From Elusimicrobiota bacterium (GTDB lineage Bacteria > CAYTYR01 > UBA6262): DNA of 64,000 nt. The DNA lies in contig PMCA01000027.1 in the NCBI GenBank assembly GCA_003153935.1, forward strand, positions 9,405-73,404. The letters are read 5' to 3'. This document shows, piece after piece, positions 21,997 to 42,674 of the stretch. Both the position numbers and the translations under genes were made by a program. Below the pieces are notes generated by a model that was given only the letters and a program-made list of their open reading frames with translations, had not been told where the DNA came from and did no database searches. Numbering within the stretch: the stretch's first letter is position 1; each line of letters starts with the position of its first letter.

Positions 21997-23391
21997 CTAT
22001 TGTATTTTATAATTTTTCAAATTATGTCCGCACCAGGGCTTGACGCAGTAACCCTTCTCCTGGTGAGAAATGCAATTTAAGTCCTGCTCGTTATCGATAT
22101 GGTCGGCGAGCAATCCCGCGAACAGCCGCACGTAAAACTGCGCCCGCGTGCAGGGATCGTATCTCTTCCAGAAATCACCCCATTTATAATCGCGCTCATA
22201 CCGTGACCTGATCAGCCCGGCGATATGCTTAGGATGCCAGTTCAGTTTGGTCAACAGCCGGGTGATCAGCTGGATATTGGTCGGCTTCAGTAAATTATTA
22301 TTCGGGTAACGCAACGCGTGCGCGGCGCAGGCCGGCAGATCGTCAATATGGAAATAGTCATAAGAGCGCGGCCATTCGACCGGCGAATGCATATATTCCT
22401 GATCAAAGTATTTATGAAATTTAATCAATTGGGAATGCTTATAACTGTTGATCAGTTTCATCACCGCCGCCGACGCGTCCGGTATAACGGTATGGATGTG
22501 CGCGGCGTAATCGGCGGCCTGCTTATAATTCTGTCTGATCAGCAGCATATCCTCCAGGCTCAGCTCGATCCGGGGAATGGTCACCTGTATCGGCGTGGCG
22601 TCGGCCACCTGCTCGGTAAATTTCTGCTTCTGGACCTTATGTTTCTGGTACAGGCTGAAAGCGCAGCGAGTATCGCGGATGTTCATCGGGTCCCCGTACA
22701 TGGACAGGTCCAGGTTGATGGCCTCGCGGCCCTCGCCGCCCTTGCCTACCGCCGTGTCCGTGCAAACCACCGGCAGAGGACTGACCAGCTTGATCTCCTT
22801 GATCACCTGGTGCGACACATATTCCAGCAGCCGACCCATGCCGTCATGGGCCAGGTTGAAGCGCAGGTTATTCAGGTTTTCCAATGAAAGATCGCGGGTC
22901 GCGGCCAGGTTATCGCTGAGCTTGCCGATCTTTTCCAGGGCCTTATTGGTCCGGGAATCGCGCTTGATCTCGAAAGCGAAATGATATCCCTGCCCGGTCA
23001 TGATCACCAGCGGATGTATTTCCAGTCGGTGGAAGACTTTTAAAATAGCCTTATAGACCGGCTCGATCTTGGTAAAGACTTCCTCCGGCTGCAAATACGC
23101 TTTGCCGGGGAAATCCATGTTAAAATATTCTATATCCAGTATGCCAATCGTAAAATTTACGTCACTGACCGAGCGGAATATATCCAAACCTTTTTCCAGT
23201 ATCCAGTCGAACTTATCCTTGGTAGTGGAAATAAAATTGCGGGCGTTTATGTCTTCCTGCTGCAGCACCGTCCCGTAACCGACTAAATACTGGGCGGAGA
23301 ACCCCATCGGATCCTGCACTTCGCCCCCGCAGTATTCCGCAATGCGTTTTCGCACATGCGAGTTCTTGTAAAACTCTTTGTCTGGCGTCAT
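21997..23391 (-). CDS. Hypothetical protein, 464 aa, with a C-terminal Cys/His cluster; no family recognised
   Basis: Long uninterrupted ORF with a near-consensus promoter and RBS; ends ...CISHQEKGYCVKPWCGHNLKNYKIQ. I cannot assign it to a known family. Confidence 0.5.
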   Translation of the reverse strand: MTPDKEFYKNSHVRKRIAEYCGGEVQDPMGFSAQYLVGYGTVLQQEDINARNFISTTKDKFDWILEKGLDIFRSVSDVNFTIGILDIEYFNMDFPGKAYLQPEEVFTKIEPVYKAILKVFHRLEIHPLVIMTGQGYHFAFEIKRDSRTNKALEKIGKLSDNLAATRDLSLENLNNLRFNLAHDGMGRLLEYVSHQVIKEIKLVSPLPVVCTDTAVGKGGEGREAINLDLSMYGDPMNIRDTRCAFSLYQKHKVQKQKFTEQVADATPIQVTIPRIELSLEDMLLIRQNYKQAADYAAHIHTVIPDASAAVMKLINSYKHSQLIKFHKYFDQEYMHSPVEWPRSYDYFHIDDLPACAAHALRYPNNNLLKPTNIQLITRLLTKLNWHPKHIAGLIRSRYERDYKWGDFWKRYDPCTRAQFYVRLFAGLLADHIDNEQDLNCISHQEKGYCVKPWCGHNLKNYKIQ

Positions 23392-23470: not shown

Positions 23471-23491
23471 CAAATTTATATAAGCAAAAAC

Positions 23492-23574
23492 AGTTTTAAG
23501 TGTTAAGTGAAAAGTGTTAAGTTATGGTGATTTTTTACCACAACTTAAAACTTATAACTTATAACTCAAAACTG
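23492..23574. repeat. Heptamer-array palindromic intergenic element, copy 2
   Basis: Plus strand: AGTTTTA AGTGTTA AGTGAAA AGTGTTA AGTTATG, spacer gtgattttttaccac, then inverted units CAACTTA AAACTTA TAACTTA TAACTCA AAACTGC. It lies between the GT4 stop and the promoter above. Confidence 0.6.
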
Positions 23575-23577
23575 CTT

Positions 23578-24672
23578 TTATTTTAATTCCAGGACTTTCT
23601 GGTAGGCGTGTTCGGTGTTGACGGCGAATCTGTCCAAGGTGTATCTTTCTTCCATCTGGCGCCGGGCTTTGGCGCCCATACGCTGGCACATATTCTTGTC
23701 TATCAGCAGTTCATATAACCGCTGGGCCATGGCCTCATGGTCGCCAGGGTCGACCAGGTAGCCATTCTGCATATCGCTGACCAGTTCAGGCAGGCAGCCT
23801 ACTTTAGTGGCCACTACCGGTTTGCCGCAAGCCATCCACTCCATGGCCGCCCGGGAAATGGCTTCGCTGCCAACGGAAGCTATCACCCCGATATCGCAGG
23901 CGTTCATGATCTCCACGATCTCTTCCCGCCGGCCGGCGTAAATTATATCGTCCTGCAGACCCAGGCTATAAACTGTTTCCGCCAGTCTTTTCCATTTAAT
24001 GTTCTCTTCCTTGCCCACGATCAGGAACTTCACCTTAGGGAAAATATCTTTTATCATTTTAGCGGCCTGGATGAAATTACTGTGGCCCTTGATCGGGTCC
24101 AGTCGGCCAACTATTCCTACTAAAGAAACCCCGTCCTCGATCTTGAATTCCCGGCGGATCTTGTCGCTGCTGAAGCCCGGCTTGAAAAAACCCGTATCGA
24201 TACCCTGGTAGATGGTCACGAACTTATAATCCGGCAAGCCCAGGCTTTCGATACAACCCTGGCGAATGAATTCTGCAGCGCAAATAACCAGGGCGCTCTT
24301 TTCGTATAGATGCTTGTTGGCCGGGTTGGCATTAGGAGCGCGGATATCCCCGCGTGTGCGTACGATGGGGATCTGGCTCAAAGTTGTGCGCAGGCAGAAA
24401 TAGGCCCAGAAGTGGCTTTGGCCGCCATGGGCGTTAACCAGTTCTATTTTCTCCCTGGTGATGGCAGTGCGGAAATTAAAAACATTCACATCGGTAAAAT
24501 TCACCGGTAAAGTCGGGATACCCAGGCGCGCCGCCTGCAGTAACGGCGGCTTGTTGGGCCAGCCGCCGACGATCACCTTATGCCCGTGCCACATCATCGC
24601 CTGTGACAGGGTGAGAGCGTAGTTGGTTATCCCGCTATCCCACGGTTCGTCTATCAGTTGCAGTATATTCAT
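23578..24672 (-). CDS. Glycosyltransferase family 4 (GT-B, retaining)
   Basis: 364 aa; C-terminal GT4 core with a conserved E-x7-E-like region and the donor-binding segment (GKPVVATKVGCLPELV). Confidence 0.8.
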   Translation of the reverse strand: MNILQLIDEPWDSGITNYALTLSQAMMWHGHKVIVGGWPNKPPLLQAARLGIPTLPVNFTDVNVFNFRTAITREKIELVNAHGGQSHFWAYFCLRTTLSQIPIVRTRGDIRAPNANPANKHLYEKSALVICAAEFIRQGCIESLGLPDYKFVTIYQGIDTGFFKPGFSSDKIRREFKIEDGVSLVGIVGRLDPIKGHSNFIQAAKMIKDIFPKVKFLIVGKEENIKWKRLAETVYSLGLQDDIIYAGRREEIVEIMNACDIGVIASVGSEAISRAAMEWMACGKPVVATKVGCLPELVSDMQNGYLVDPGDHEAMAQRLYELLIDKNMCQRMGAKARRQMEERYTLDRFAVNTEHAYQKVLELK

Positions 24673-24688
24673 GTTGGCCTTTCCGGTA

Positions 24689-25945
24689 TTATCCGCTGCG
24701 CTCTGTCTTATACCACAGGGCTTTTTCCTTTTTTATAAAATCCTTAATGAAAGCGGATATTACCACCACCAGCCAAAGCTGGCAATAGGTGAAATACATC
24801 AGTATAACGTAAAAAATATTGGTGACGCTGTCTTCATTCGATTCCCGCGAAAGCATCAGTACAATCTCGCTGACGAAAAGCATGTAGGCGGCTATCCAAA
24901 CTTCCAGGAACGGCCCCTGTATCCGGATATGGACCAGGTTCAGCAACCCGAGGATAAAGAATATATCCGATGAGATCATGGCCAGGAAAAATACGTAATA
25001 CATTACAAAAAACAGCAGGAATTCTGTGCCTATCGCCTTATTCTTGAACGCCTTGAATTCAGCCAACACCCTGGTCAGCACATAATTATTCCCTCTGACC
25101 CAGCGTTCTCTTTGACGCAACCAGACCTTGACTTTTTCCGGTTCCTGCTCCCTGGTAATAGCTTCCGGCACGAAACAGATCTTCCCGCCAGCCCGGTAAA
25201 GCCGTAAGGACAGCTCCGCGTCTTCGGTCAAGGCCTTCTCATCCCAACCGCCTACCGCCTGGACTGATTTTTTCCAGATGACAAAGTTGGTACCGGGAAG
25301 GATGGCAATATTGAAGAAAAATGAGCGGCCCGCCTGGATGATCCATTGGAAAGTCAAGGATTCAATATTAATGAACCTGGTAAGCAGGTTTTTATCCTTA
25401 TTAATGGTGCGAAATTTGCCTATCGCCGCTACTATATCTTTTTTGGTCACCAACTCCCGTACTAGTATTTTCAGGGATGCAGTCTCTGGACGGTTATCCG
25501 CGTCGTAAACCGCAATGATCTCCCCGCTGGTCCGCTCCAAGGCGATATTTAATACGCGAGACTTACCCTGACCGCTCTCGGCCAGCGGGATATTTATTAC
25601 CTTCAGCCGACTGTCGTTGATAGATTCCAGAATCTCCCGGGTACGGTCAGTGGAGCCGTCATTGATGATGATAACCTCTATCTTATCCGCCGGATAGTCC
25701 AAGCGAAATAAACAAGAAACCGTTTCCGCGATGACCTTCTCTTCGTTCCGGGCGGGGATGATAACGCTCACCAAAGGCCAGTCCTTAAAACCAGGGGCCA
25801 TTATACTCGCCTTGTTTTTTCTCCGGCTGTAAAGATAGCCACCAAAGGTAAGGATTACCTGATACACCAGCATCAACCAGATGATGGCTACGGAGAGCAA
25901 ATAAATTGATTCAAAAATAATATCGGTCATGATTATGGCCACCAT
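24689..25945 (-). CDS. Processive family-2 glycosyltransferase (PgaC/IcaA/cellulose-synthase-like polysaccharide synthase)
   Basis: 418 aa; two N-terminal TMs; GT2 catalytic domain (VIIPARNEE...IINDGSTD); the Q-x-x-R-W motif (QRERWVRG); C-terminal TM bundle. Confidence 0.8.
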   Translation of the reverse strand: MVAIIMTDIIFESIYLLSVAIIWLMLVYQVILTFGGYLYSRRKNKASIMAPGFKDWPLVSVIIPARNEEKVIAETVSCLFRLDYPADKIEVIIINDGSTDRTREILESINDSRLKVINIPLAESGQGKSRVLNIALERTSGEIIAVYDADNRPETASLKILVRELVTKKDIVAAIGKFRTINKDKNLLTRFINIESLTFQWIIQAGRSFFFNIAILPGTNFVIWKKSVQAVGGWDEKALTEDAELSLRLYRAGGKICFVPEAITREQEPEKVKVWLRQRERWVRGNNYVLTRVLAEFKAFKNKAIGTEFLLFFVMYYVFFLAMISSDIFFILGLLNLVHIRIQGPFLEVWIAAYMLFVSEIVLMLSRESNEDSVTNIFYVILMYFTYCQLWLVVVISAFIKDFIKKEKALWYKTERSG

Positions 25946-28900
25946 TTCCTTTTAATCTGTATCGCCAGGAACAAAGCGATGAAAGTAACGCTGGTAAAGA
26001 ACCCGAAAATAAAGATGAGCGAGAATAACACTACTCCGGAGGTTTCCACCAGGCGGGCCAGGCCGCCGGCCACTACGATCTTTACAACGTGAGTACCCCG
26101 CGGTAGCCTGACGGAGTAACCGGTATCGCCCTCGTAAATTTGGCAATTGGCGCGATTATCGTCCACGTATATCCTGGCCGGGATCTTATTGATTATGGCA
26201 TAGCAGGCCGACCGTTCAGCGCTGTAAGAGAATTCTATGGCATTATTGGAAAAGTTGGCCCATTTGAGTTCTCCGGAAATATAGCTAAGCCGGGGCTTCA
26301 TGCTGGCCATATCGAAATACCGGGGTTCAGCTTCGAACTTCAGGGTATGTTCACCAGCCGGGACCACCACTTCCTCGCCTTCCCCGGCAAACCAATTATC
26401 ATCATCCAGCTTGGTGATCAATCCCTGCCGGCCGCTCCTGATAGTGACCATATAAGGAGTATTGATCTTCCATTGTGTATCGGATTCAGCTTTAATGTTA
26501 ACATCACGCGCCAGCACCGAAGAAATATTCCGGTAATCGTTCTCATAAATAGTCGCCTCGGAATAGAATACCGGCCGGCTCTTCGTCAGGTCCATGTTGT
26601 AAGCGATCTGCCTGATCTCCTCGCCGGTCGGCTTTTCCGCCGGCAGGCCGCCCTCACCTTTTTTATGATTGTCCAGGATATTACAGTCTAATGCCAGCTG
26701 GTCGTCCGCTTTGATGAATTTACGGTAATAATTACCCAGGGTGAGATAACGATCGGGCTTCCCGCTCCAGAACGGCAGGGAATCCTCGACCTGTAGAGTG
26801 AGATCGTATTTTTTCTGCAAGCTGATCAGGTTATCGGTACTTTCCCCCAGGTAGTCTTCCAACTGGGGCGCCTGGCTGGTATCGATAGCGGTCATTACTA
26901 TCTCAAAATCCTTTTTCTTCTGCTGGATGCCGGACAACATGTCCAGGTAATAGGTTTTCAGGCGGAAACTTAAGTCCCGGCGGTAGCGGGCCAGTTTCCC
27001 CCAATCTTCAGGATGGTTCTGCCAGTAATGCGCGCTCTGCGGGTCGAATATCTGCAACGGGTCGAACCCGTATATTCCCGTGAATTCTTTCCTTACCGTT
27101 TCGTTCATGGGCGTAAAATTCTCGGGATAGGCCGGCCCGCCGGCAGACTCGAAATAAAGCTCCGAGAGATTAACGCCATCCCAATCGTACCTGGTAAGTA
27201 AAGCGCTGATCTCGGAAAACGCTTTCTGCCGGCAATGTTCGTCAGCCAGGTTCATTAAATTACGCCACGAAACCTTACCGTCTTTCAGCTTAGCGGTCTT
27301 CTCCCGCCATTCCGGATGTTGGTCCCAAAAACGCTGGTTGACCATGGGCGGTTCCAGCCAGCAATAGACCAAAATGCCGTTCTGGTGGCAGACCTTAAGT
27401 AAACGGGCGTAGTCATAGGAATACTTGCTATAAAAATGCCAGCCCCCGGCATAGATCTTCTGCACGCCATATTTTCTCCAGAGCACGGCCAGTTTCTCAA
27501 TACTGATGAACTGTCGCATCCCGGGATCAAAATACATCTCCGCGGCCTTGCGCTCTGCCAGCAACGGATAATTAAATACGCTGGTCAATGTTTCCGCGAG
27601 AAAAGGGAAACGTGAATAACCGCGATCGCTATCCGGGTCAAAATAAGTGGCATAATAGAGGAAACCGCCTTTGCCTAACCTCCCACCGACGGCCACCGGC
27701 AGGTTGGAAGATTCTTCGGCGCTTATAATTTGATAATCCTTGTCCGCTGATTTGTATATCGGCTTAACGCCGGCGGTTTTGGACCAATACAGCGGCAGAT
27801 CCGGAAATTGGTTATCGCGTATCTGCTTGACCAGGATCGACTCTTCCTGCAGTTCTATTCCCAAGGCATCGCCCACCTTAGTCGCTCCATCGGTAACCAG
27901 ATCGGCGCCGGAGCTTATGGCCTCCAACAAGTGTTTAATTTCCTCTGCTTTTAAATTTTTGGCGGCGGCATAAGGCAGGATGATAAGGTCATAATCACGC
28001 AAATCGAGATTAAGGATATCCTTGCTATTCAGGTCCTGGAATTTTATCCCGGCCACGGAGAGAGAGAATTTTAGGGATTTAAGATCATTGTTCTCCTCCC
28101 TGGAAACAGGCGGGACCGGAGGGTCAATAAAAGCCACGTCCATAACTTCATTCAATTTTCCGCCTGATTTTTTTGCGCTTATCCGGCGCAGGTAACTCAA
28201 GTCAGTCTTCGCCAAGTGCCACATTTTTTTCCAGAACCCCGGCTCCAGGTTCTCCTGGGGTTTGACCACTACGTACTCTCCCGGACCGCACTTTACCGGC
28301 ACGGTATTTTGCTGGCCAGCGGTATTTACCAGGATTTGCTGGCTTACCTCCTGGCCCTGTAAATTAAAAGTTTTTATGGCCAGGTACTTATCGTTGCTCA
28401 AGACGCTGACATCGGTTGTTTGCGAGACTATGGCCTTATCTTTGGCCCTGACCTCCGGAGAGAACTCCTTAATATCCCCGAACACATAGCCTAATTTCCT
28501 GACGCCTTTGACTATCTGGCGCAGGTAAGATATGTCGATGATCGGGTGGAAAAAGAAACTGGCAAAACCATCCCTGACCGAGAGATTAAGCCGGGCGGCA
28601 TCGATGATCTCCTGGGCGTCCGGTTTATCCAGGTGCACATAGCCCAGGTTTTCCGGAATAGTTTCTTGCCCGAAGATATCCGTGACGCGGTAGGGAAAGA
28701 ACTGGTCGGTGCCCAGGAAATTCCTGACCCGGCGGCGTTCATAGACCAGTGAAAAATATTTCTTGATGGCGTGGTAAGCGTTATCCGAGGCGAAATAGTG
28801 CGGCGTTTCCCAGACCAGGGGATAGATATCATTGCTGAAGCATTCCCGCAACCCCTTCTCGATCCGCAGCGCGGCGTTATCATAAGAGTCTCCGCGCACC

Positions 28901-29874
28901 GGTTTGTCGGCGATATCATCCCAGAACTCATAATCATCGGTAGTTACCCCATGGTACTGGTGCGTATAGCCGTGCAGGATGAACGTACCGCCCATCTGCG
29001 GTATCTTGCGCAGGACCGCCAGCAATTCCGGCATTTCCTCCAGGTGATATTCGAGCTTATTGACAGGATCGATAAAAACCGGGGTCAACCCCACGGCAAA
29101 AGGAATATTCTCCCCTTTCAGGTATTTAACGATCCTCCATAAAGAATCGGGGTCAGTGGTGGGATTAACGTCCTCGATCCTGACCAGAGCGGTATGTTTT
29201 ACCGGGTGGTCTTCACCGAGGATATCGTGCAGAACATCGGCAAAAGCGATATAGCGGTCGTTTTCGGAATAATACGAGAACGGCGAATCAGCGATAAACC
29301 AGAGGTTCCGGGTTTTAAGTATATAGGGCGCGCTGAGTCCCCGGTCGTTATGCACGCTGGCGACCACGGTAACGAGTCCCGGATCGTCTATCCGCACAAT
29401 ATTGATATTGTCGTCCCCTTTGGGGAACTCGGTTCCTTTATAGATAACCCGGTTGAAGCCCAGGTCTTCCCGGTACTGCTCGAAATGGAAACCGAACCGG
29501 CCGGCGAGTTGTTTCTGGTCCAGTTGGCCCAGCTGGTTATTCATCCAGCAGAAAGTTTTCTGGGTATTAAAAAAGTCCTGTACGAAACTTTCCGGTAAGG
29601 AATATTTTTTTTCATAGTTTATATAAAAAATAACGTCATTCTTATCCATGGTCCCCGGCTTATAGTAGGCCAGGTTCATCAAACGGCAAGAGACTTGAAA
29701 ATGCCCCATTAAATTTGCCAGGTACCGGGCGTCGGTTAAAGCCGGCTCGGATTTATCCACCCCTTGATCATAGAGTATCAGGACCTTGCGGCTGGACGCC
29801 GCCTGTAGCATCCCCCCGCGTAAAAAAACAAATAATAACACTATAATTATTCTGCTAAATCTTTTTCTCATCAT
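25933..29874 (-). CDS. Large multidomain EPS-modifying protein: signal peptide, DUF2334-like polysaccharide deacetylase domain, GATase1-like middle domain, glycoside-hydrolase-like TIM-barrel and C-terminal TM anchor
   Basis: The start is reassigned to the Met beginning MMRKRFSRIIIVLLFVFL (a signal peptide) so that it does not overlap the cstA stop. It carries deacetylase-like motifs (FILHGYTHQY, VWETPHY) and a hydrolase-like segment (YAGGWHFYS...ILVYCWLEPP...WDGVNLSELYFE). It ends in the TM segment VVLFSLIFIFGFFTSVTFIALFLAI. Confidence 0.6.
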   Translation of the reverse strand: MMRKRFSRIIIVLLFVFLRGGMLQAASSRKVLILYDQGVDKSEPALTDARYLANLMGHFQVSCRLMNLAYYKPGTMDKNDVIFYINYEKKYSLPESFVQDFFNTQKTFCWMNNQLGQLDQKQLAGRFGFHFEQYREDLGFNRVIYKGTEFPKGDDNINIVRIDDPGLVTVVASVHNDRGLSAPYILKTRNLWFIADSPFSYYSENDRYIAFADVLHDILGEDHPVKHTALVRIEDVNPTTDPDSLWRIVKYLKGENIPFAVGLTPVFIDPVNKLEYHLEEMPELLAVLRKIPQMGGTFILHGYTHQYHGVTTDDYEFWDDIADKPVRGDSYDNAALRIEKGLRECFSNDIYPLVWETPHYFASDNAYHAIKKYFSLVYERRRVRNFLGTDQFFPYRVTDIFGQETIPENLGYVHLDKPDAQEIIDAARLNLSVRDGFASFFFHPIIDISYLRQIVKGVRKLGYVFGDIKEFSPEVRAKDKAIVSQTTDVSVLSNDKYLAIKTFNLQGQEVSQQILVNTAGQQNTVPVKCGPGEYVVVKPQENLEPGFWKKMWHLAKTDLSYLRRISAKKSGGKLNEVMDVAFIDPPVPPVSREENNDLKSLKFSLSVAGIKFQDLNSKDILNLDLRDYDLIILPYAAAKNLKAEEIKHLLEAISSGADLVTDGATKVGDALGIELQEESILVKQIRDNQFPDLPLYWSKTAGVKPIYKSADKDYQIISAEESSNLPVAVGGRLGKGGFLYYATYFDPDSDRGYSRFPFLAETLTSVFNYPLLAERKAAEMYFDPGMRQFISIEKLAVLWRKYGVQKIYAGGWHFYSKYSYDYARLLKVCHQNGILVYCWLEPPMVNQRFWDQHPEWREKTAKLKDGKVSWRNLMNLADEHCRQKAFSEISALLTRYDWDGVNLSELYFESAGGPAYPENFTPMNETVRKEFTGIYGFDPLQIFDPQSAHYWQNHPEDWGKLARYRRDLSFRLKTYYLDMLSGIQQKKKDFEIVMTAIDTSQAPQLEDYLGESTDNLISLQKKYDLTLQVEDSLPFWSGKPDRYLTLGNYYRKFIKADDQLALDCNILDNHKKGEGGLPAEKPTGEEIRQIAYNMDLTKSRPVFYSEATIYENDYRNISSVLARDVNIKAESDTQWKINTPYMVTIRSGRQGLITKLDDDNWFAGEGEEVVVPAGEHTLKFEAEPRYFDMASMKPRLSYISGELKWANFSNNAIEFSYSAERSACYAIINKIPARIYVDDNRANCQIYEGDTGYSVRLPRGTHVVKIVVAGGLARLVETSGVVLFSLIFIFGFFTSVTFIALFLAIQIKRKWWP

Positions 29875-29875: not shown

Positions 29876-31846
29876 CTACGAAACCTCTCCGGGGTTTTCG
29901 GGATTCTGGTCATCTTCAGCAGCGATGATCCCGTCGGCGCATAGGATCGTTTTACGGTCTTTGCGTGAAGCTGCCAGGTAGATATACCATTTATAGACCA
30001 TGTCCAGCAGTACCACAATTGCCAGGATGGCCATCAAATACACCAGGACTATATCTATCCGGTAAGAAAGTATCTCAGCCGGAACCGTTGCCGTAGTGAG
30101 TTTGGCTTTGAACATGTCGATCAACTGCCAGGAAGCGGTGAAAGTGGTAACGAACATAAATAACATCGGGATGAAAGTCGTCCAGGCGTACTGGACCTTG
30201 TTCTGCTTGATTATGACCGTAGTTCCCACTCCCAGGGCAATGGCCGCTAATAACTGGTTGGAAACGCCGAACATCGGCCAGATGGTCGAGATATTTCCGG
30301 AATTAATGAGATAGCCCCAAGCCCCCACTACCAAAAAACTCATTAGGAGTGTGCCCGGTAACCACGATGGCCGGGCCAGCGGTTTATAGACATACCCGCC
30401 GAATTCCTGCAACAGGAAACGCGCCACCCGGGTGCCGGCATCCACCGTCGTCAGGATAAACAACGCTTCGAACATCAGGGCGAAATTATACCAGTATGGC
30501 ATCAACCCTTTCATGCCCGGCAGATTGCCCAGGATGGAAGCCATGCCCACCGCCAGTGAGACCGCGCCGCCGGGACGGCCCGCCACATCCACTCCGACCA
30601 TGGCGGATAATTCATGTATTCTATGCACCGGGAAACCCATTATGGCTAACTGGTCGAAAGTTAATTTGGTGTTGATGGCGAAATAATCGCCGGGTATCAG
30701 GATCGTCGCGGCGATCAGGGCAATGATCCCCACGAATCCCTCCGTCAGCATCGCGCCAAAACCGATCAGCTTTATATCCCCCTCGGAAGAGATCATTTTC
30801 GGGGTGGTGCCACTGGAGATCAACGAATGGAAACCGGAGATCGCGCCGCAAGCGATGGTTATGAACATGAACGGGAATAGTTTACCGGGTATGATCGGAC
30901 CGCCGCCGTTCACGAACTGGGTGACGGGCGGCATTTTTAAGTTAGGCGCGATGACGATCACGCCCAGGGCAAGCAACATCACTGTGCCTATTTTCATGTA
31001 AGTTGAGAGATAGTCACGCGGACAGAGCAGCAACCAGACCGGCAGTACCGAAGCGATAAAGCCGTAGATGGCCATGGCCAGAACGAGGCCGCCGCGGGAA
31101 AGATTGAAGAACGGTTCCAGCGCCGAGCCGGGAATGAAATGTCCACCAATCACTCCCGCCAGGAGCAGCAGCACACCGATAATGGACATCTCCACTACTT
31201 TGCCGGGGCGGATCTTATAAAGATAAAATCCCATAAGCAGCGCGATCGGTATGGAAACAGCGATGGTAAAGGTACCCCAGGGGCTATGCGTGAGCGCATT
31301 AACTACCGCCAGTCCCAAACCGGCCAGAGCCACAATGATGATGAACAGGATGGCGATTGATGCCGCCACTCCGCCTACCGGGCCGATCGCTTCCTTGGCG
31401 ATCTGGGCGAGCGAACGGCCGTTGCGCCTGACCGATGCGGCCAATATGACCACATCATGCACAGAGCCCGCCAGGGCGGCGCCGATCAGGATCCAGAGAA
31501 ACCCGGGCAGGTAGCCGAACTGCGCCGCCAGCATCGGGCCGATCAGGGGGCCGGCGCCGGCGATCGCCGCGAAATGATGTCCGAACAGTACCCAGCGGTT
31601 GGTCGGGTCATAATCACGGCCGTCTTTAAGACGGTGCGCCGGAGTCACGCGGCGGGCATCCAGGCTCAGTACCTTGGCGGCTATGAACGCGCCGTAGAAA
31701 CGGTAAGTGATGACGTAAACGCAGGCGGCGGCAACGACTACCCATAAAGCATTGACCTGCTCACCAGGATTAACTATGCCGGTAACGATGGCTATGGCCC
31801 AGGCAGCTATTAAAGATATACCAAACCAGATTATTTTCTTGGTCAT
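29876..31846 (-). CDS. cstA: Carbon starvation protein A (peptide/pyruvate transporter family)
   Basis: 656 aa polytopic protein; N-terminal signature NALWVVVAAACVYVITYRFYGAFIAAKVL...GHHFAAIAGAGPLIGP. Confidence 0.9.
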   Translation of the reverse strand: MTKKIIWFGISLIAAWAIAIVTGIVNPGEQVNALWVVVAAACVYVITYRFYGAFIAAKVLSLDARRVTPAHRLKDGRDYDPTNRWVLFGHHFAAIAGAGPLIGPMLAAQFGYLPGFLWILIGAALAGSVHDVVILAASVRRNGRSLAQIAKEAIGPVGGVAASIAILFIIIVALAGLGLAVVNALTHSPWGTFTIAVSIPIALLMGFYLYKIRPGKVVEMSIIGVLLLLAGVIGGHFIPGSALEPFFNLSRGGLVLAMAIYGFIASVLPVWLLLCPRDYLSTYMKIGTVMLLALGVIVIAPNLKMPPVTQFVNGGGPIIPGKLFPFMFITIACGAISGFHSLISSGTTPKMISSEGDIKLIGFGAMLTEGFVGIIALIAATILIPGDYFAINTKLTFDQLAIMGFPVHRIHELSAMVGVDVAGRPGGAVSLAVGMASILGNLPGMKGLMPYWYNFALMFEALFILTTVDAGTRVARFLLQEFGGYVYKPLARPSWLPGTLLMSFLVVGAWGYLINSGNISTIWPMFGVSNQLLAAIALGVGTTVIIKQNKVQYAWTTFIPMLFMFVTTFTASWQLIDMFKAKLTTATVPAEILSYRIDIVLVYLMAILAIVVLLDMVYKWYIYLAASRKDRKTILCADGIIAAEDDQNPENPGEVS

Positions 31847-32889
31847 TTTATATTCAATCTCTTTTTAACTGCGTTAAATACGTCGCTGACGGTGATCAGT
31901 TTCATGCAGGCGAAATTATTTTTGCTACAGCGGTTCCCCCCATGTTTGCCGCACGGCCGGCACGGCAAGTCCTTCTCCACCACTATGTCCTGCTCTCCGT
32001 ACGGATAGAATCCCAGGTCAGCAGTGGTCGGCCCAAAAATAGCTACTACCGGCACCTGCTGGGCTACCGCTATATGCATGGCCCCGCTGTCGTTGGTTAT
32101 CAGTAAATTCAGCCTTTTGGTCAAGGCGGTCAATTGTTTTAAGGTGGTCTGGCCCGCCAGGTTTATAACACTTTCATTCATGCCGGCGGTCACTCTGGCA
32201 GCGGCTTCCTTATCAGCAGCGCCGCCGATAATAATGATCTTGGCGTTCAATTCTTTGATCAGGCGGTCGGCTACGGCCGCGAATTTTTCCGCCGGATAAC
32301 GTTTGGTCGGCCAGACGCTGCCGGGATTCAACCCGATGACCAGGTCCGTGGCGTAAATCTGGAATTTTCCCAGCATGCCCAGGGTGTAATTAATAGCCGG
32401 CCGGCCGGGATTCAGGTAAAATTCCACCTGGCGGTCTTGGATACCCAACGGAGACAGCAGGTCCAGGTTCCGGTCTATTTCATGTATATGAGGACCGCGA
32501 CGGTAAGATACTTTCCTGGTCAGCAGCACATTACCCTCGCTTTTATTAAAACCGATGCGCACCGGTATCTGGGCCAGAAAGGCCAGCAAAGAACTTTTGA
32601 ACGAGCGGTGCGGCAGGATAGCGACGTCGAAGTGGCGCGCCTTTACTTTCCGTACCAAATGTCCAAGGGCGCCCCAGGACCGCTCTTTATCTTTTTTGTC
32701 GAAAATTATTATCTCATCGATGGCCGGGTTATCCGACAATATTTCTTTCACCTGGGGAGTCACTAATACGGCCAGATGGCTTTTAGGCAAGGTCCGCCGC
32801 AACGCCATGATCAACGGAATGGTTAACACTACGTCACCCAGGAATGCGGTCTGAATAATTAAAATTCGATCGTTTTTTAGGTTTTTCAT
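31843..32889 (-). CDS. ADP-heptose--LPS heptosyltransferase (GT9)
   Basis: 348 aa; RILIIQTAFLGDVVLTIPL N-terminal GT9 signature; C-terminal TNDSGAMHIA motif. Confidence 0.8.
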   Translation of the reverse strand: MKNLKNDRILIIQTAFLGDVVLTIPLIMALRRTLPKSHLAVLVTPQVKEILSDNPAIDEIIIFDKKDKERSWGALGHLVRKVKARHFDVAILPHRSFKSSLLAFLAQIPVRIGFNKSEGNVLLTRKVSYRRGPHIHEIDRNLDLLSPLGIQDRQVEFYLNPGRPAINYTLGMLGKFQIYATDLVIGLNPGSVWPTKRYPAEKFAAVADRLIKELNAKIIIIGGAADKEAAARVTAGMNESVINLAGQTTLKQLTALTKRLNLLITNDSGAMHIAVAQQVPVVAIFGPTTADLGFYPYGEQDIVVEKDLPCRPCGKHGGNRCSKNNFACMKLITVSDVFNAVKKRLNIK

Positions 32890-33929
32890 CAGATCCTGAT
32901 TCCCAATTCCGTCAGTTGTTTATATATTACGTTAAAAACCATTTCCGGTTTTATGCTGGCCAGGCAGAGCTGGTCACCGCGTTTGCAGTGATCATCGCCA
33001 TGCAGGCTGCACGGCCGGCAGGGCAAATTATAGTCTAGGACCCTATCTCTTTCCCGGGCCAGGATGAACCCAAACTCCGGTACCGTTGGGCCAATGAGTA
33101 CCAGCACCGGAACATCCAGGGCTTGGGCGATATGCATCGTACCTGAATCACTGGTGATCAGCAACCGGCATTTAGCGACCAGGGCGAATAACTGGCGTAA
33201 AGTTGTCACCCCGGCCAGATTAACCGGTAGCACACCGTATTCGGCAACTGCATTGACGATATTCTTCGTAAATGACTGGTCCTTTTTATCTCCGAAAATA
33301 AGTAATCGAGCGTTACGCTCCCGGAACATTTTTAAGAATTCAAGCCAATTACTGAAGGGCCAGATCTTAGTTTGCCATTTGGCTCCCGGATTTATGCCTA
33401 TCAAGTGATCTTCATCTAAATAGCCTTTAGTTTTGAGCAATTCTTCCGCCCACTGAACTTCTTCCGGTTTCAGGTAAAGCCTGGGTTGCCGGTCAAATTC
33501 CGCTGGGCTGAACCGCGACAATGGTTCCAGGTACCTTTCAATGACCGTGCGATTCAGCGGCGCAGTTCGTTTCTTGAAATAAACCAAACGATACCGGGCC
33601 AGGGAATCTTTCTTATACCGGAGAACCTGTATACCTAACAACCAGCTCAAAATATGGCTGCGCAGATTCCCGTGTAAGTCCAGGCACAGGTCGTATTTTT
33701 TTTCGCGTAAACGCCGGGCCAGGAAGAACAGGCTTTCCCCCTCCCCCAGTGAAACTATTTCATCCACCTGCGGATTATTATAAAATACGTCGATATATTG
33801 GCTCTTGGTCAAGACCGTTAGCCTGGCTTCCGGCCACAGCTTCTTTAACGCAGTGAACACGGGGGTAGTCAGGATAACGTCACCCAGCGAACTTAGGCGT
33901 ATTACCAGGATATTACGCGGTTTTATCAT
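32889..33929 (-). CDS. ADP-heptose--LPS heptosyltransferase (GT9), second paralog
   Basis: 346 aa; NILVIRLSSLGDVILTTPV and ITSDSGTMHIA motifs. Confidence 0.8.
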   Translation of the reverse strand: MIKPRNILVIRLSSLGDVILTTPVFTALKKLWPEARLTVLTKSQYIDVFYNNPQVDEIVSLGEGESLFFLARRLREKKYDLCLDLHGNLRSHILSWLLGIQVLRYKKDSLARYRLVYFKKRTAPLNRTVIERYLEPLSRFSPAEFDRQPRLYLKPEEVQWAEELLKTKGYLDEDHLIGINPGAKWQTKIWPFSNWLEFLKMFRERNARLLIFGDKKDQSFTKNIVNAVAEYGVLPVNLAGVTTLRQLFALVAKCRLLITSDSGTMHIAQALDVPVLVLIGPTVPEFGFILARERDRVLDYNLPCRPCSLHGDDHCKRGDQLCLASIKPEMVFNVIYKQLTELGIRI

Positions 33930-35190
33930 GGCTAAGCAATCCTTCCAGGGCCTGCATATTTTTTAGCAGCGCGCCCTGTTTTTTTCTTAAACCGGCTCTG
34001 GCGTTTTCTCCCAGCTGGCTGGCACGGACGGGATCGCGCAATAGAGAACCCAGTTGTTTTTCCAGGTCAGCGGCATCGTCAACCTGCAGGGCTGCTTTCT
34101 CAGATAGAAGAAAACTGGCGGTCTCCTTAAAATTGCTCATATAGGGCCCGAATAGCACCGGCTTGGATAAAGCCGCTGGTTCGATAATATTCTGCCCGCC
34201 GAAATTAACCAGGCTACCGCCCACAAAAACCACCGTAGAGACGCTGTAGGCCTGGGTTAGCTCGCCCATCTTATCCAGCAACAGGCAATCAAAACCCTTG
34301 GGAGAGTCCGGCAGCGTGGTTTTACGAACATATTTAATCTTATTAGCGGTTAACAATTTTTCTATTTCCGTCAGCCGTTCCAGGTGCCGAGGCGCCAGTA
34401 TCAGCTTCAAGCCGGGGAATTCTTTCTTTAAGTTGCAGAATGCCTGGATCAAAATCTCCTCTTCTCCGTACCTGGTACTGCCGGCGGTCCAGACCAGATC
34501 GGTCTCTTCCAGCCCGAACTCCCGGTAATTGCCGCAGGGTACCGGGCTATTTACTGTGCTCAGGTCGTATTTCAAGGAAGAACAGACCTGGATCCGGTCC
34601 GGGGGGACTCCCAATTCGGCAAAACGCTCGCGATCGGTCTCATCCTGCACGCAGGCGACGTTAATGTTAGTTAATACCGACCGGAACAGATTCCTGAATT
34701 TACGGTATTTGGGGAAATTACGGTCGGATAGACGGCCGTTGATGATCGCCAGCTTGACTCCCTGCTGTGCCGCGGTAGCTATCAGATTTGGCCATAACTC
34801 AGTTTCCACCAAAGCCAATACTTGTGGGCGCAGGGACTTTATAAACCTGTTCACCACGCCGGGCGCGTCGAGGGGCGCCAGGAGCACCGTAGCCTGGCCG
34901 GCCAGCTCCCGGTTGGCTGTGGCTAAACCGGTAGCGGTGATAACGGATAAAACAAATTCCTGCTCCGGCTTTTTCTGTTTAAACGCCTTGACCAACCCTG
35001 CAGCGATCCTAACTTCGCCGACGCTGGCGGCATGCATCCAGATAACCGGTAATTTGGACACCGGCAGGTTAAAACCCAGGCGCTGGCTGAATCCGACGCG
35101 CCATTTAGCGGAGAAAATTATCTTAAACAGCCAGTAAGGAGAGAGCAATACCAGCAATATGACCAGTAACAGATTATAAAGCGCCATCAA
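33913..35190 (-). CDS. waaA: 3-deoxy-D-manno-octulosonic acid (Kdo) transferase
   Basis: 425 aa; N-terminal TM; IWMHAASVGEV motif typical of KdtA/WaaA. Confidence 0.88.
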   Translation of the reverse strand: MMALYNLLLVILLVLLSPYWLFKIIFSAKWRVGFSQRLGFNLPVSKLPVIWMHAASVGEVRIAAGLVKAFKQKKPEQEFVLSVITATGLATANRELAGQATVLLAPLDAPGVVNRFIKSLRPQVLALVETELWPNLIATAAQQGVKLAIINGRLSDRNFPKYRKFRNLFRSVLTNINVACVQDETDRERFAELGVPPDRIQVCSSLKYDLSTVNSPVPCGNYREFGLEETDLVWTAGSTRYGEEEILIQAFCNLKKEFPGLKLILAPRHLERLTEIEKLLTANKIKYVRKTTLPDSPKGFDCLLLDKMGELTQAYSVSTVVFVGGSLVNFGGQNIIEPAALSKPVLFGPYMSNFKETASFLLSEKAALQVDDAADLEKQLGSLLRDPVRASQLGENARAGLRKKQGALLKNMQALEGLLSHDKTA

Positions 35191-35819
35191 CTTGACTCCA
35201 GCAATTTATCGGTTTCATCGGTAAGTATATTCAGGGCTTGTTCCAGTTCTTTCTTTTTGGCGGCGAGATCATCACCCTTACCGACGTACACAGGATTGCC
35301 GTTGGCGACGATGATATAGTTAAAAGGGAAAGGCACGACGAACTGGTCCCAGTTCTTTAGGATCTTTTTTCTTTTGGCGCTGAAAGTGAGCGGCACGATG
35401 GGAAGACCAGTTTTCTGGGCCACGTATAGTACGCCGGGTTGTACCTCTCGGTACGGGCCCTGGGGACCGTCCGGGGTAAAAGCCAAAACGTCTCCTTTTT
35501 CCACCTGGTGGATCAATTCCACCAGCGCCCGCATACCGCCCCGTGACGTGGATCCGCGCACTGACTTAAAACCGAACAGGCGGGTAATATTGGTGATAAG
35601 TTGCCCGTCCTGGCTTTGGCTTATTAAAATATTGATCTGACGATAACGATGGGAGTAAACGAGGAAGAGCTGGCGGCCGTGCCAAAAAGCGTAAATGAAG
35701 TTCTTTTTCTCTTTTTTTAGATTTTCGATAATGCCGTTATTAATAACCTTAATACGGCTGGTAAAGCCGATCAGCCAGATGAAAATATATCCGACAATGG
35801 AGACCAGCCAATTCGACAT
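35187..35819 (-). CDS. DUF374/lysophospholipid-acyltransferase-like protein associated with Kdo transferase
   Basis: 210 aa; N-terminal TM; FWHGRQ and FTPDGPQGP segments typical of the DUF374 family that is commonly encoded next to waaA. Confidence 0.6.
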   Translation of the reverse strand: MSNWLVSIVGYIFIWLIGFTSRIKVINNGIIENLKKEKKNFIYAFWHGRQLFLVYSHRYRQINILISQSQDGQLITNITRLFGFKSVRGSTSRGGMRALVELIHQVEKGDVLAFTPDGPQGPYREVQPGVLYVAQKTGLPIVPLTFSAKRKKILKNWDQFVVPFPFNYIIVANGNPVYVGKGDDLAAKKKELEQALNILTDETDKLLESS

Positions 35820-35821
35820 GG

Positions 35822-37549
35822 TTATTCCCTGAACTGGATTTCGTGCAATTTTTTATAAAGCCCGCAACGGCCCAGTAACTCCTGGTGTTTGCCGATATCG
35901 ATGATCCGGCCTTTTTCCAGTACTACTATCTTGTCGGCCTTGCGCACGGTGGAAAGCCGGTGGGCGATAATAAAGGTCGTGCGCCTGATCATCAGCATAT
36001 CCAGCGCTTCCTGCACCAGGTGCTCGCTTTCACTGTCCAGTGCGCTGGTAGCTTCGTCCAGGATCAGGATACGCGGATCACGGAGGATGGCGCGCGCCAT
36101 GGCCAGGCGTTGCCGTTCTCCGCCGCTGAGATTGACTCCGCGATCACGGATCAGGGTGTCATACCCTTTTTCCATCGCCTGGATAAAATTATGGGCGTTA
36201 GCCGCCTTAGCCGCCTTAATGATCTCTTCTTCTTTGGCTTGTGCGTTACCGTAGGCTATATTGTTGCGAACGGTATCGCTGAAAAGTATGGTTTCCTGGG
36301 TGACTATACCGATCTGGCCGCGCAGGGAAGACAGGGTAACTTCGCGTAATTCAAGCCCGTCGATGATAATACGCCCGCTGATCGGGTCGTAGAAACGCGG
36401 GATCAGGTTCACCATGGTGGTTTTGCCGCTGCCACTGGGTCCGACGATGGCAATTATCTCCCCGGCCTTTACCTTCAGGTTGATATCTACCAGTACCGGT
36501 TCGGTGTTATAGGAAAAATTCACCTTCTCAAAAGTTATTTCATTTTTGAACAGGGGTAATTCCTGAGCTCGTTCCGCTTGCACCACACTCGGCGGAGTAT
36601 CCAGTACTTTAAATATTCTTTCACTGGCGGCGACCGTCTGCTGCAAAACCGCGTTGGTCTGGGAGAAGCTTTTGATCGGGGTGTAGGAAGATAAGGCCGC
36701 GCCGACAAAGGAGAAAAAAGCGCCGGCGGTCCAAACCCCTTTGATCACTTCCAGCCCGCCGTACCAGACAATTATGGTCGAGCCTAGCACGCCGATAAAT
36801 TCCATCAACGGCGGAGAGAGCGCGATCACCCGCATGGAACGCATAATGATGCTGAAATAACTCTGGTTTTCTTTTTTGAACCGGTCTATTTCCTTGACCT
36901 GCGTGCAAAAAGCCTTGACGATCTTGATACCGGTGATAGTTTCCAGCAACAGCGAATAGATATCCGCCATTTTGGCCTGCGACTCAGTTGAAACCTTGCG
37001 TAATTTCTTGCCGAATCTTACTATCAAGAAAATAACGAACGGACTTACCCCTAAAGTGCAGAGAGCAAATTTCCAATTTAAATAAAACATCAGCCCGATC
37101 AAACCGAGAATGGTGAATCCGTCCTTGACCAGGCTGACCAGGCCGCCGGAGATCGCGTTCTGGATAATGCCGACATCATTGGTGATACGGGAAACGATAG
37201 AGCCGGTGCGCTTGTTCTCGAAGAAGTCCAGCGACAGCTTTTGGTAATGCTCATACAACTGGTTGCGCATATCCACTACCACCTTCTGCCCAATATAGGA
37301 CATCAGGTAGCCCTGGCCATAGGAGCAAATTCCTTTTAACAGAAATATCACCGGCAGAGCCAGCGAGATCCACAGCAGCATTTGCGTGTTTTTTTCGATA
37401 AAGATGCGGTCGATCACGTATTTCAGGATCCACATGGAGGATGTCGTGAATAGCGCTACCCCGATCATGAACAGCATGGCCCAGAACAGACGGCTGTAAT
37501 AAGGCCGCACGTAACCCCACAAACGCCGATAGATGTATTTATTTTCCAT
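35822..37549 (-). CDS. msbA: ABC transporter permease/ATPase, lipid A flippase MsbA-like
   Basis: 575 aa; 6-TM exporter domain plus an NBD with Walker A GPSGSGKTT, signature LSGGERQRLAMARA and Walker B ILILDEATSALD; it lies inside the lipid A cluster. Confidence 0.8.
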   Translation of the reverse strand: MENKYIYRRLWGYVRPYYSRLFWAMLFMIGVALFTTSSMWILKYVIDRIFIEKNTQMLLWISLALPVIFLLKGICSYGQGYLMSYIGQKVVVDMRNQLYEHYQKLSLDFFENKRTGSIVSRITNDVGIIQNAISGGLVSLVKDGFTILGLIGLMFYLNWKFALCTLGVSPFVIFLIVRFGKKLRKVSTESQAKMADIYSLLLETITGIKIVKAFCTQVKEIDRFKKENQSYFSIIMRSMRVIALSPPLMEFIGVLGSTIIVWYGGLEVIKGVWTAGAFFSFVGAALSSYTPIKSFSQTNAVLQQTVAASERIFKVLDTPPSVVQAERAQELPLFKNEITFEKVNFSYNTEPVLVDINLKVKAGEIIAIVGPSGSGKTTMVNLIPRFYDPISGRIIIDGLELREVTLSSLRGQIGIVTQETILFSDTVRNNIAYGNAQAKEEEIIKAAKAANAHNFIQAMEKGYDTLIRDRGVNLSGGERQRLAMARAILRDPRILILDEATSALDSESEHLVQEALDMLMIRRTTFIIAHRLSTVRKADKIVVLEKGRIIDIGKHQELLGRCGLYKKLHEIQFRE

Positions 37550-39615: not shown

Positions 39616-40433
39616 ATCTGCTCCTTAACGGCGGCCAGACATATCTTATAATGATCGGCCAGCGCCACTACTTTCTCCAGATCCAGGATAAGCGTTTCCC
39701 CGGCGCTAAAAGCCAGTACGCCGGCCTTAGCCTGGTGTAAAGTTTCGATCGTTCTTTCACCAATAATCGGCACGTCAAAACGCAGGTCCTGGTGCGGTTT
39801 GGAAACTTTGACTACCACCACGTTCTCTTTACCGATCAGCCCTCCGCGCAGGATGGCCTGGTCCGTGCCTTCCATTGCTTCGACGGCGAGCACAGCTTTA
39901 TCTTTCACCACCACGGTCTGGCCGATATCCAGGCCGGCTATGCCTTTGGCCAGGCGCAAGCCAAAATTAATATCCTGCCTTTCTTCTTTCGTGGGTTTTT
40001 GTTTAGTCAGTATCCCTTCCCGGGGGATGAATTTTTCCAGGAATATGGTCGAGTCTACCAGCCGGATGCCTTCCTGGTTAAGCTCCTGGGCCACTCCGCC
40101 CAGGATCGTGTCAGCCTTTTTATCCGGCAAACGTTTAAGCAGGCCCATGGCGCGCAGGTCCAGCTTCAACAAATCAAAAAGGCGGAAATGTTTTACCTGT
40201 CCTGCCATCACCGCCCGTTTTACTTCCTGTTTTTTGAAAACAGAGATCAATTTATTAAGTTGTCCCAGGGAGACCCAGGTGAAGCTGTCAACCAGATTTT
40301 CCAATTCTGGCTTGGTTTCGCCCTCCAGCGCCACGGCTATGACCCGCAGGTTTTGTTCCCTGGCGGCCCGGGCGAAATGCAGGGGATAATCACCGTTCCC
40401 CGCTATGAGACCGATCTTGTTATCTTCTGGCAT
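39612..40433 (-). CDS. lpxI: UDP-2,3-diacylglucosamine hydrolase LpxI (DUF1009)
   Basis: 273 aa; IGLIAGNGDYPL N-terminus and overall DUF1009 architecture; it sits between lpxA and lpxB, and no lpxH is present in the cluster. Confidence 0.8.
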   Translation of the reverse strand: MPEDNKIGLIAGNGDYPLHFARAAREQNLRVIAVALEGETKPELENLVDSFTWVSLGQLNKLISVFKKQEVKRAVMAGQVKHFRLFDLLKLDLRAMGLLKRLPDKKADTILGGVAQELNQEGIRLVDSTIFLEKFIPREGILTKQKPTKEERQDINFGLRLAKGIAGLDIGQTVVVKDKAVLAVEAMEGTDQAILRGGLIGKENVVVVKVSKPHQDLRFDVPIIGERTIETLHQAKAGVLAFSAGETLILDLEKVVALADHYKICLAAVKEQI

Positions 40434-42672: not shown

Positions 42673-42674
42673 AA

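Follow-up and report, generated by a model that had tools for sequence, protein, structure and literature searches.

Genes and domains of the locus

Within a 64-kb stretch of contig PMCA01000027.1 from an Elusimicrobiota bacterium (the window, 64,000 nucleotides (nt) in full), three consecutive genes on the reverse strand were examined that encode a giant protein of 1313 amino acids (aa), a glycosyltransferase of family GT2 and a glycosyltransferase of family GT4. An initial annotation had read these genes as one translationally coupled exopolysaccharide (EPS) module resembling those for PNAG (poly-beta-1,6-GlcNAc) and Pel. The analysis supports a synthase-dependent polysaccharide module with a bifunctional modifier protein, to which a different kinship and a smaller gene content are assigned below. 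The features identified are as follows.

25933..29874, reverse strand: gene of the giant protein, 1313 aa (open reading frame (ORF) and translation; ATG at 29874)
29794..29874, reverse strand: signal peptide or signal anchor of the giant protein, aa 1-27 (MMRKRFSRIIIVLLFVFLRGGMLQAAS; hydropathy peak at aa 9-27, modelled helix at aa 2-21)
29200..29793, reverse strand: N-terminal alpha/beta domain, aa ~28-225 (AlphaFold (AF2) secondary structure; shared with stand-alone YdaL-type proteins)
28504..29190, reverse strand: DUF2334 (CE4-like) deacetylase domain, aa 229-457 (Pfam PF10096, E 3e-48)
28240..28455, reverse strand: beta-sandwich, aa ~474-545 (AF2 strands 474-540)
27574..28137, reverse strand: GATase1-like domain of the GH42 'trimerisation' type, aa ~580-767 (AF2 model; GH42 matches)
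26512..27543, reverse strand: glycoside hydrolase (GH)-like (beta/alpha)8 barrel, aa ~778-1121 (AF2 model, Foldseek, invariant columns)
26071..26499, reverse strand: C-terminal beta-sandwich domains, aa ~1126-1268 (AF2 strands 567-709 of the C-half model)
25960..26016, reverse strand: C-terminal transmembrane (TM) helix, aa 1287-1305, followed by the basic tail KRKWWP (hydropathy; model helix 712-752)
24689..25945, reverse strand: GT2 synthase, 418 aa, YdaM-type (Pfam, NCBIfam, motif alignment)
23578..24672, reverse strand: GT4 glycosyltransferase, 364 aa (Pfam and NCBIfam)
23486..23579, reverse strand: hairpin of 94 nt (RNA fold of -40 kcal/mol, z = -7.8 against shuffles)

The start of the giant gene at 29874 was found to agree with the N-termini of its homologues. 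Its 3' end overlaps the GT2 gene by 13 nt, an overlap that becomes a 2-nt gap (25931-25932) if the GT2 is taken to start at Met6 (25930). The GT2 and GT4 genes are separated by a gap of 16 nt with no overlap. No free-standing small ORF for a PgaD/IcaD-like protein was found between or beside the three genes.

The giant protein and the GT2 synthase

DUF2334 was the sole Pfam match of the giant protein, and searches against NCBIfam and PDB sequences were empty. The protein was modelled with AlphaFold as two halves, using an alignment of 50 sequences, and the models (pLDDT of 89.9 for aa 1-600 and 91.5 for aa 560-1313, with values below 50 in the linker of aa 560-579) were compared to the PDB using Foldseek. 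The best structural match of the N-half was the N-deacetylase part of human NDST1 (541 columns, E 5e-11), spanning the alpha/beta and deacetylase domains together. NDST1 (PDB 9f6z, 8cd0) likewise has a CE4-like domain following an alpha/beta domain and N-deacetylates GlcNAc within a polymer, but this eukaryotic enzyme works in the Golgi, carries a sulfotransferase as a fusion partner and, at ~12% identity, resembles the N-half in fold only. The N-half was also found to match the CE4 deacetylases BA3943, ArnD, PdaA, PgdA (SpPgdA), Bc1960 and HP0310. In the C-half, GH42 beta-galactosidases aligned with the GATase1-like domain over ~230-258 columns; PF08532 is precomputed on several giant homologues, and DUF4350 matches 2 of 29 stand-alone relatives of the C-half. 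The most compact matches of the barrel were the GH153 domain of PgaB/BpsB (6au1; E 5.5e-9, TMt 0.60) and Cwp19 (5oq3; TMt 0.58), with weak GHL6/GHL10 Pfam matches seen among C-half relatives. The domains first assigned to the giant (signal, DUF2334, GATase1-like, GH-like TIM barrel and C-terminal TM helix) were therefore borne out by Pfam, hydropathy and AlphaFold/Foldseek.

Across the 50 sequences, invariant columns of the deacetylase domain were identified as R232-x-E234-D235, H301-x3-H305, D314/E316/W318/D319, W355-E356-x-P358-H359, R434-D435-G436 and H443, with E234-D235, H301-x3-H305 and H443 matching the CE4 motif spacing at the level of sequence columns. Invariant acidic and aromatic residues of the barrel include W856-R857-E858, D899-G900, E905, D998, E1030-D1031, D1063, E1086 and E1106. 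This set of residues would fit active enzymes, as compatibility and not as proof. The C-terminal TM helix is kept in 50 of the 50 giants. Owing to the signal peptide (putatively cleaved), the TM helix and the basic tail, the protein is placed in the periplasm and tethered to the membrane, and the data support its description as a periplasmic, membrane-anchored bifunctional modifier with deacetylase-like and GH-like domains.

The GT2 gave strong Pfam matches to GT2 families and aligned with BcsA through DDG/DAD/TED/QRERW, and its catalytic residues D96, D148-x-D150, E241-D242 and Q278-R-x-R-W282 were found to be invariant in 18 related GT2s. Hydropathy indicated one N-terminal and at least three C-terminal TM segments, which is the PgaC-type layout; the early description of a 418-aa processive GT2 with QxxRW and PgaC/IcaA-like TM segments agrees with these results. 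No PilZ domain was identified in the protein with Pfam, its end lying 23 aa past the last TM segment, and no significant similarity to NfrB was detected.

These findings bear on whether the locus is a genuine PNAG system, that is, a compact equivalent of Pga/Ica in which the giant replaces PgaB and the porin lies elsewhere. PgaC_IcaA was the best NCBIfam match of the GT2, colinear over the full length. Shared with PgaABCD/IcaADBC are a membrane GT2 of the same overall layout and a periplasmic protein that joins a deacetylase to a GH-like barrel, the barrel of the giant superposing on the PgaB/BpsB GH153 domain. However, the GT2 scored 151.1 bits against the PgaC/IcaA equivalog TIGR03937 (cutoff 422.3) and was 24% identical to E. 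coli PgaC (100 bits), compared to 44-48% for Yda-type GT2s. The deacetylase domain of the cassette is DUF2334 (PF10096) and not PF01522, no similarity between the giant and E. coli PgaB was found (BLASTP E 0.3, hhalign probability 0.3), and the modifier is TM-anchored whereas PgaB is a lipoprotein. Neither PgaD nor PgaA was found in the window, and neither is conserved in the 15 related loci described below. With WecB, which recurs beside related cassettes, suggesting UDP-ManNAc, a sugar nucleotide not needed for PNAG synthesis, we regard a PNAG system as unlikely.

Pel differs in its type of synthase, PelF being a cytoplasmic GT4. The GT4 of the window scored 60.4 bits against the PelF model NF038011 (cutoff 100), and no Pel component (PelA-G) was found among the window ORFs. 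The cassette, as far as its sequences tell, is neither Pga nor Pel, and the original 'PNAG/Pel' label was dropped. Nor is the union of deacetylase and hydrolase in one protein as unusual as had been proposed: PgaB carries both by its annotation, and PelA is a periplasmic protein uniting a glycoside hydrolase with a CE4-type deacetylase that acts on an aminosugar polymer, although domain order and families differ between PelA and the giant. What appears unusual or new is the YdaL-type DUF2334 domain, the anchoring in the inner membrane by a C-terminal helix, a gene content of only two with loss of BcsB, GGDEF and GH8 partners, the kinship to the Firmicute YdaKLMN proteins and the wide spread of this unstudied family among diderm phyla.

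A conserved two-gene unit and its Yda-type relatives

Comparison was made to 15 other loci with a full-length giant, seven obtained from exact-protein look-ups and eight from a scan of species-representative genomes. A GT2 of the same type (394-429 aa) was found directly downstream of the giant in all 15. Among the seven loci with called genes, the junction of the pair consisted of a 4-nt overlap in four, an 11-nt overlap in one, a 1-nt gap in one and a 28-nt gap in one, and the genes flanking the pair were entirely different from locus to locus. No porin, TPR-barrel, PgaD, BcsB or PilZ gene was conserved with the cassette across the 15 loci, and no GGDEF gene adjoined it in the seven loci with precomputed Pfam annotation. 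The GT4 had no orthologue beside the 15 other cassettes (the best candidate, an upstream GT4 in locus L015, was 23% identical) and CstA, which precedes the giant in the window, was absent beside the cassette at the other loci examined; the juxtaposition of GT4 and CstA with the pair is therefore specific to this genome. The conserved unit is the giant and the GT2 only, two genes and not three. The GT4, first counted as a member of the module, is a lineage-specific accessory outside the conserved cassette, and the 'nutritional coupling' proposed from CstA finds no comparative support.

In total, 828 homologues of the giant were found, with the best 120 colinear over 90-100% of the query (118 of these over 94-100%). 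The nearest named relatives are from metagenome-assembled genomes (MAGs) of Endomicrobiales/Elusimicrobiota, at 57% identity, and members of the giant-GT2 family occur in several diderm phyla. In the literature, as far as titles, abstracts and single occurrences show, DUF2334, PF10096 and COG5298 are mentioned incidentally, and at that level no paper treating the giant-GT2 family was found.

The constancy of the pair also bears on the possibility that the giant acts on peptidoglycan, as a PgdA-like deacetylase with a Cwp19-like lytic enzyme, and is tied to the GT2 by position only. Its fold matches do include the deacetylases SpPgdA, PdaA, Bc1960 and HP0310 together with the peptidoglycan hydrolase Cwp19. 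Yet the GT2 adjoins the giant at each of the 15 loci, which belong to different phyla and share no other flanking genes, and the two frames usually overlap. As split homologues also lie within EPS operons, this explanation is highly improbable.

Variation around the pair was observed at several loci. Two GGDEF genes lie ~4 kb upstream of the cassette at L003 (L003:4477-6698), and a PAS-HD (HD_5) protein is encoded directly 3' of the GT2 at the locus of the closest homologue (L015:11641-13410); these hint at c-di-GMP control in some cassette relatives, while no PAS-HD or GGDEF counterpart was found beside the cassette in the window. A giant variant of ~1670 aa with an extra N-terminal GHL6/GHL10 domain was identified at L036:11641-15395, L039:11462-16175, L063:11358-15142, L041 and L048. 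Its operon is longer and conserved, and consists of the giant, the GT2, a protein of 237-289 aa, an FG-GAP beta-propeller that ends in a sorting domain for type IX secretion, and WecB.

The two halves of the giant were also found apart. The C-half family gave 559 matches among 1.84 billion representatives, many of them stand-alone proteins of ~670-740 aa, and at least 554 matching stretches in species-representative genomes. The best 80 C-half loci were mostly of Acidobacteriota (Terriglobia, Bryobacteraceae), in which the C-half-like protein stands alone (for example L020:7836-10016 and L045:7686-9794, among L016-L095); no GT2 or YdaL-like/DUF2334 gene was found within 8 kb of it at these acidobacterial loci. 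One MAG (L029 and L047) carries a stand-alone C-half copy as well as a fused giant, and in an Acidobacteriaceae MAG (L057:5811-9845) a 1345-aa ORF joins the C-half module to a different, non-YdaL-like N-terminal part of ~650 aa. On plasmids, tblastn identified YdaL-like proteins in Ralstonia, Burkholderia, B. thuringiensis and Streptomyces, and no match to the C-half. The orphan YdaL-like DUF2334 proteins of Ralstonia solanacearum megaplasmids (L008:8917-10662 and 135 other records, often in two copies) and of a Burkholderia plasmid (L009:8956-10599) are ~550-580 aa in length and ~30% identical to the N-half, have no adjacent GT2 and carry inconsistent labels ('papd-like protein', 'cell wall anchor', 'hypothetical').

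As the JGI label of giant homologues is YdaL (COG), the cassette was compared to the ydaJKLMN operon of Bacillus subtilis. In that species ydaLMN are needed for an EPS of unknown structure (PMC5422440, PMC13274460), for which YdaK, a degenerate GGDEF protein, is the c-di-GMP receptor (PMC5422440, PMC13274460, PMC9800504). Proteins of Clostridium botulinum, Paenibacillus and a Clostridia MAG were used as proxies for those of B. subtilis 168. The operon of the Clostridia MAG (L018) was found to encode a GH8, a GGDEF protein, a DUF2334 protein (557 aa), a GT2 (418 aa), a BcsB-domain protein (711 aa) and a C-half-like protein (846 aa), and those of C. botulinum and Paenibacillus a GGDEF protein, a DUF2334 protein, a GT2 and a BcsB-domain protein, an order which is that of ydaJKLMN. 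From this gene order YdaN is almost certainly a BcsB-like protein; the gene sizes also agree with those of the B. subtilis Yda proteins, which supports this assignment.

The identity of the GT2 over its full length was 48% to the protein of the Clostridia MAG, 47% to that of Paenibacillus and 44% to that of C. botulinum, and Firmicute Yda-type GT2s were found to score like cassette members on a hidden Markov model of the GT2. The giant matched YdaL-type proteins over aa 1-496 (27-29% identity, E 1e-51 to 5e-61) and the product of the sixth gene of L018 over aa 599-1264 (29% identity, E 2e-99). In both systems a deacetylase-like gene directly precedes the GT2, and the N-half of the giant corresponds to a whole YdaL-type protein (signal, alpha/beta domain, DUF2334, beta-sandwich and C-terminal TM helix). 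A single C-terminal TM helix is common to YdaL-type proteins, BcsB-type proteins and all 50 giants, and was present in 4 of 29 stand-alone C-half proteins. As this helix is a feature of YdaL-type proteins and of every giant and of few stand-alone C-halves, the giant reads as a YdaL-type protein that would have gained a GH-like module ahead of its membrane anchor. Its origin as a fusion of YdaL and YdaN was considered and rejected, since the gene after the GT2 encodes a BcsB-domain protein of ~700 aa and the C-half corresponds to another, sixth gene.

The cassette differs from the Yda operon in having no GGDEF-type receptor (YdaK), no BcsB-domain protein (the YdaN position) and no GH8 (YdaJ); with Pfam, neither of the latter two was found in the window or in the other cassettes, whereas BcsB (PF03170) is present in the Firmicute operons. 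The module of ~700 aa (GATase1-like, GH-like and beta-sandwich domains) is fused into the YdaL-type protein of the cassette and is a separate sixth gene in the Clostridia MAG, and the cassette hosts are diderm. From these sequence relationships, the true kin of the cassette are the GGDEF-DUF2334-GT2-BcsB operons of Firmicutes.

The same relatives raise the alternative that the GT2 makes a glucan devoid of aminosugar, cellulose-like or another beta-glucan, with DUF2334 acting as an O-acetyl esterase or a non-catalytic binding module. In Firmicutes the GT2 is paired with a BcsB-domain protein and a GH8, as in cellulose systems, the GT2 aligns well to BcsA, and a CE4 pseudoenzyme is among the fold matches of the giant. 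With BcsA-BcsB the cassette shares a processive GT2 with D/DxD/TED/QxxRW and a large periplasmic partner on a single C-terminal TM helix. The cassette GT2, however, has no PilZ domain and fewer TM helices, and BcsB consists of carbohydrate-binding and flavodoxin-like domains where the giant has domains of enzymatic type. The GT2 scored 95 and 86 bits against the cellulose synthase models TIGR03030 and NF008558 (cutoffs 699 and 992), the residues of metal-site type are invariant in the 50 giant sequences, and the association with WecB also speaks against a glucan, so that this product seems improbable.

Proposed mechanism and the sugar of the polymer

Eight of the 15 giant-GT2 loci have a gene for WecB, the non-hydrolysing UDP-GlcNAc 2-epimerase, inside the operon or adjoining it, in at least three arrangements and with scores of 463-504 bits against the equivalog TIGR00236 (cutoff 210). 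The product of WecB is UDP-ManNAc. The gene lies directly upstream at L006 (8762-9913) and L085 (4985-6151), directly downstream at L047 (11733-12884) and three genes downstream in the ~1670-aa clade (L036:14244-15395, L039:15066-16175, also L041, L048 and L063), and on a Streptomyces plasmid it likewise accompanies a split DUF2334/GT2 pair (L011:4377-5654). A GT2 synthase that requires UDP-ManNAc made by WecB for its product has a precedent in E. coli NfrB (PMC8669469, PMC8669472). The NfrB/NfrA system differs from the cassette in the c-di-GMP-binding C-terminal domain of NfrB, in its outer-membrane partner NfrA and in having no deacetylase, and the GT2s are not similar. The WecB association, taken with the CE4/NDST-like domain, favours a polymer of N-acetylhexosamine (HexNAc) type that would be partly de-N-acetylated and possibly contain ManNAc. 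Since the window has no WecB, GlcNAc may be the sugar used here; alternatively, the genome may carry WecB at another site.

On balance, we consider it probable that the core of the locus encodes a polysaccharide machine of the YdaL/YdaM type, synthase-dependent and self-contained in two proteins. According to its motifs and architecture, the GT2 in the inner membrane would polymerise a UDP-activated HexNAc (GlcNAc and/or, where WecB adjoins, ManNAc) to a beta-linked chain and thread it across the membrane. The giant would leave the cytoplasm by way of its signal peptide and stay anchored in the inner membrane through its one C-terminal helix, in the topology of YdaL and BcsB. This helix probably docks on the synthase, as that of BcsB does on BcsA, which would position the body of the protein over the channel exit. 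From the folds and the conserved residues, the DUF2334 (CE4/NDST-like) domain is predicted to remove some of the N-acetyl groups, and the GH-like barrel, flanked by the GATase1-like domain and the beta-sandwiches, to bind the chain and cleave or trim it, two jobs that PgaB and PelA combine in their own systems. The GT4 in this genome may prime or decorate the polymer.

Several points weigh against this proposal. The C-half family occurs alone and far from any GT2 in many Acidobacteriota, and the C-half is therefore not intrinsically tied to this synthase. The CE4 pseudoenzyme BA3943 is among the fold matches, so that catalysis by the DUF2334 domain is not guaranteed, and this domain is without a sequence-level match to PgaB. 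In these diderm hosts no conserved outer-membrane exporter accompanies the cassette, which makes 'exo' in exopolysaccharide an assumption. WecB is missing from the 64 kb analysed. Furthermore, the only chemical hint for the Yda polymer of B. subtilis is that it binds the lectin GSL-1 (alpha-Gal/GalNAc; PMC13274460), a property not easily explained by an inverting GT2 making a beta-HexNAc chain.

A further-reaching interpretation, which we put forward tentatively, is that the two proteins by themselves make up a complete machine and represent a distinct, undescribed class of synthase-dependent system, one that needs no co-polymerase, no c-di-GMP receptor and no dedicated porin in the outer membrane. 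Its product in Acidobacteriota, Elusimicrobiota, Ignavibacteriota/Bacteroidota and uncultured phyla related to them would be a polymer containing ManNAc or GlcNAc from which part of the N-acetyl groups has been removed, and which may be kept in the periplasm or on the cell surface instead of being secreted.

Synthase-dependent polysaccharides such as cellulose, PNAG, Pel and alginate are the basis of biofilms and serve as models of polymer secretion. The machinery described here would be cut to two proteins, in many soil and sediment phyla, and the cassette ties these phyla to the Yda system of B. subtilis and Clostridium, the product of which has been unidentified since 2017. By homology, the HexNAc link would, if true, make the Bacillus Yda polysaccharide a deacetylated HexNAc polymer and would give a function to Pfam DUF2334/COG5298. 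The link predicts that the substrate is a HexNAc, namely ManNAc at loci with WecB, that DUF2334 acts as an N-deacetylase and that the single C-terminal helix serves for docking. It also makes a question of whether diderm cells lacking a dedicated porin can export the polymer at all, and by what route.

GT4, transcription unit and surrounding genes

The third gene is a GT4 by Pfam, as first annotated, and reached no NCBIfam equivalog cutoff; in this genome it is probably co-transcribed with the GT2. The hairpin at 23486-23579 starts inside the stop codon of the GT4 gene, has a U-rich stretch on its 3' side and probably marks the end of the transcription unit. It is a very stable imperfect inverted repeat, longer than the usual intrinsic terminator, and the spacer directly 3' of the GT4 is AT-rich and 186 nt in length. 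Promoter and terminator consensus scans gave counts at chance level and were of no help in delimiting transcription units.

Pfam scans identified a long string of genes upstream on the same strand. It begins with TamB, BamA, Skp, LpxD, LpxC/FabZ, LpxA, LpxI, an oxidoreductase and LpxB, and continues after LpxB with MsbA, a DUF374 protein, WaaA, two GT9 heptosyltransferases, CstA, the giant, the GT2 and the GT4. From this string of lipid A and outer-membrane genes, the host is taken to be a diderm bacterium. CstA (E 1e-215 with Pfam) is preceded by WaaA and the two GT9 genes; the 4-nt overlaps initially reported around it hold for the GT9/CstA junction, whereas the CstA stop and the start of the giant are 1 nt apart.

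By position, the three genes could extend this lipid A and lipopolysaccharide (LPS) core operon and build or modify LPS, for example through an O-antigen-like homopolymer or a decoration of the core. They end the co-directional BamA-Skp-Lpx-MsbA-WaaA-GT9-GT9-CstA string with no terminator predicted before the GT4, and the GT4 is generic. In every other genome examined, however, the context of the cassette is unrelated to LPS, and the architecture of the GT2, with multiple TM segments and QRxRW, is that of a synthase that translocates its own product; for the three genes together a role in LPS is very doubtful, although it may apply to the GT4 alone.

The early observation that no porin or PgaD gene lies nearby was confirmed, as Pfam scans revealed no TPR-porin, PgaD, BcsB or PilZ among the large ORFs of the window and no GGDEF domain in its ORFs. 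The ORF at 21997-23391 was considered as the missing porin and rejected, as it has no signal peptide, hydrophobic segment or Pfam/NCBIfam match and lies beyond the hairpin. This 464-aa reverse-strand ORF, outside the module, has a Cys/His-rich C-terminus (CISHQEKGYCVKPWCGH). Two Omp85-family proteins were found in the window, both encoded on the reverse strand, namely an 830-aa BamA-like protein with five POTRA domains (44445-46937) and a 618-aa TamA-like protein (2467-4323); a TamB/DUF748 protein of 1620 aa is encoded at 47014-51876 (reverse strand). The BamA-like, TamA-like and TamB proteins are general outer-membrane biogenesis factors and not polysaccharide porins.

CstA (29876-31846, reverse strand) belongs to a pyruvate/peptide transporter family and abuts or overlaps the end of the lipid A/LPS-core string at 31843-35190 (WaaA and the two heptosyltransferases). 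Its placement at the end of an LPS-core string is odd and has no parallel beside the other cassettes. The lipid A cluster itself (35187-44334, reverse strand) was found to encode a 447-aa LpxC-FabZ fusion, LpxI in place of LpxH, a GFO/IDH/MocA oxidoreductase between LpxI and LpxB, and the DUF374 protein between MsbA and WaaA.

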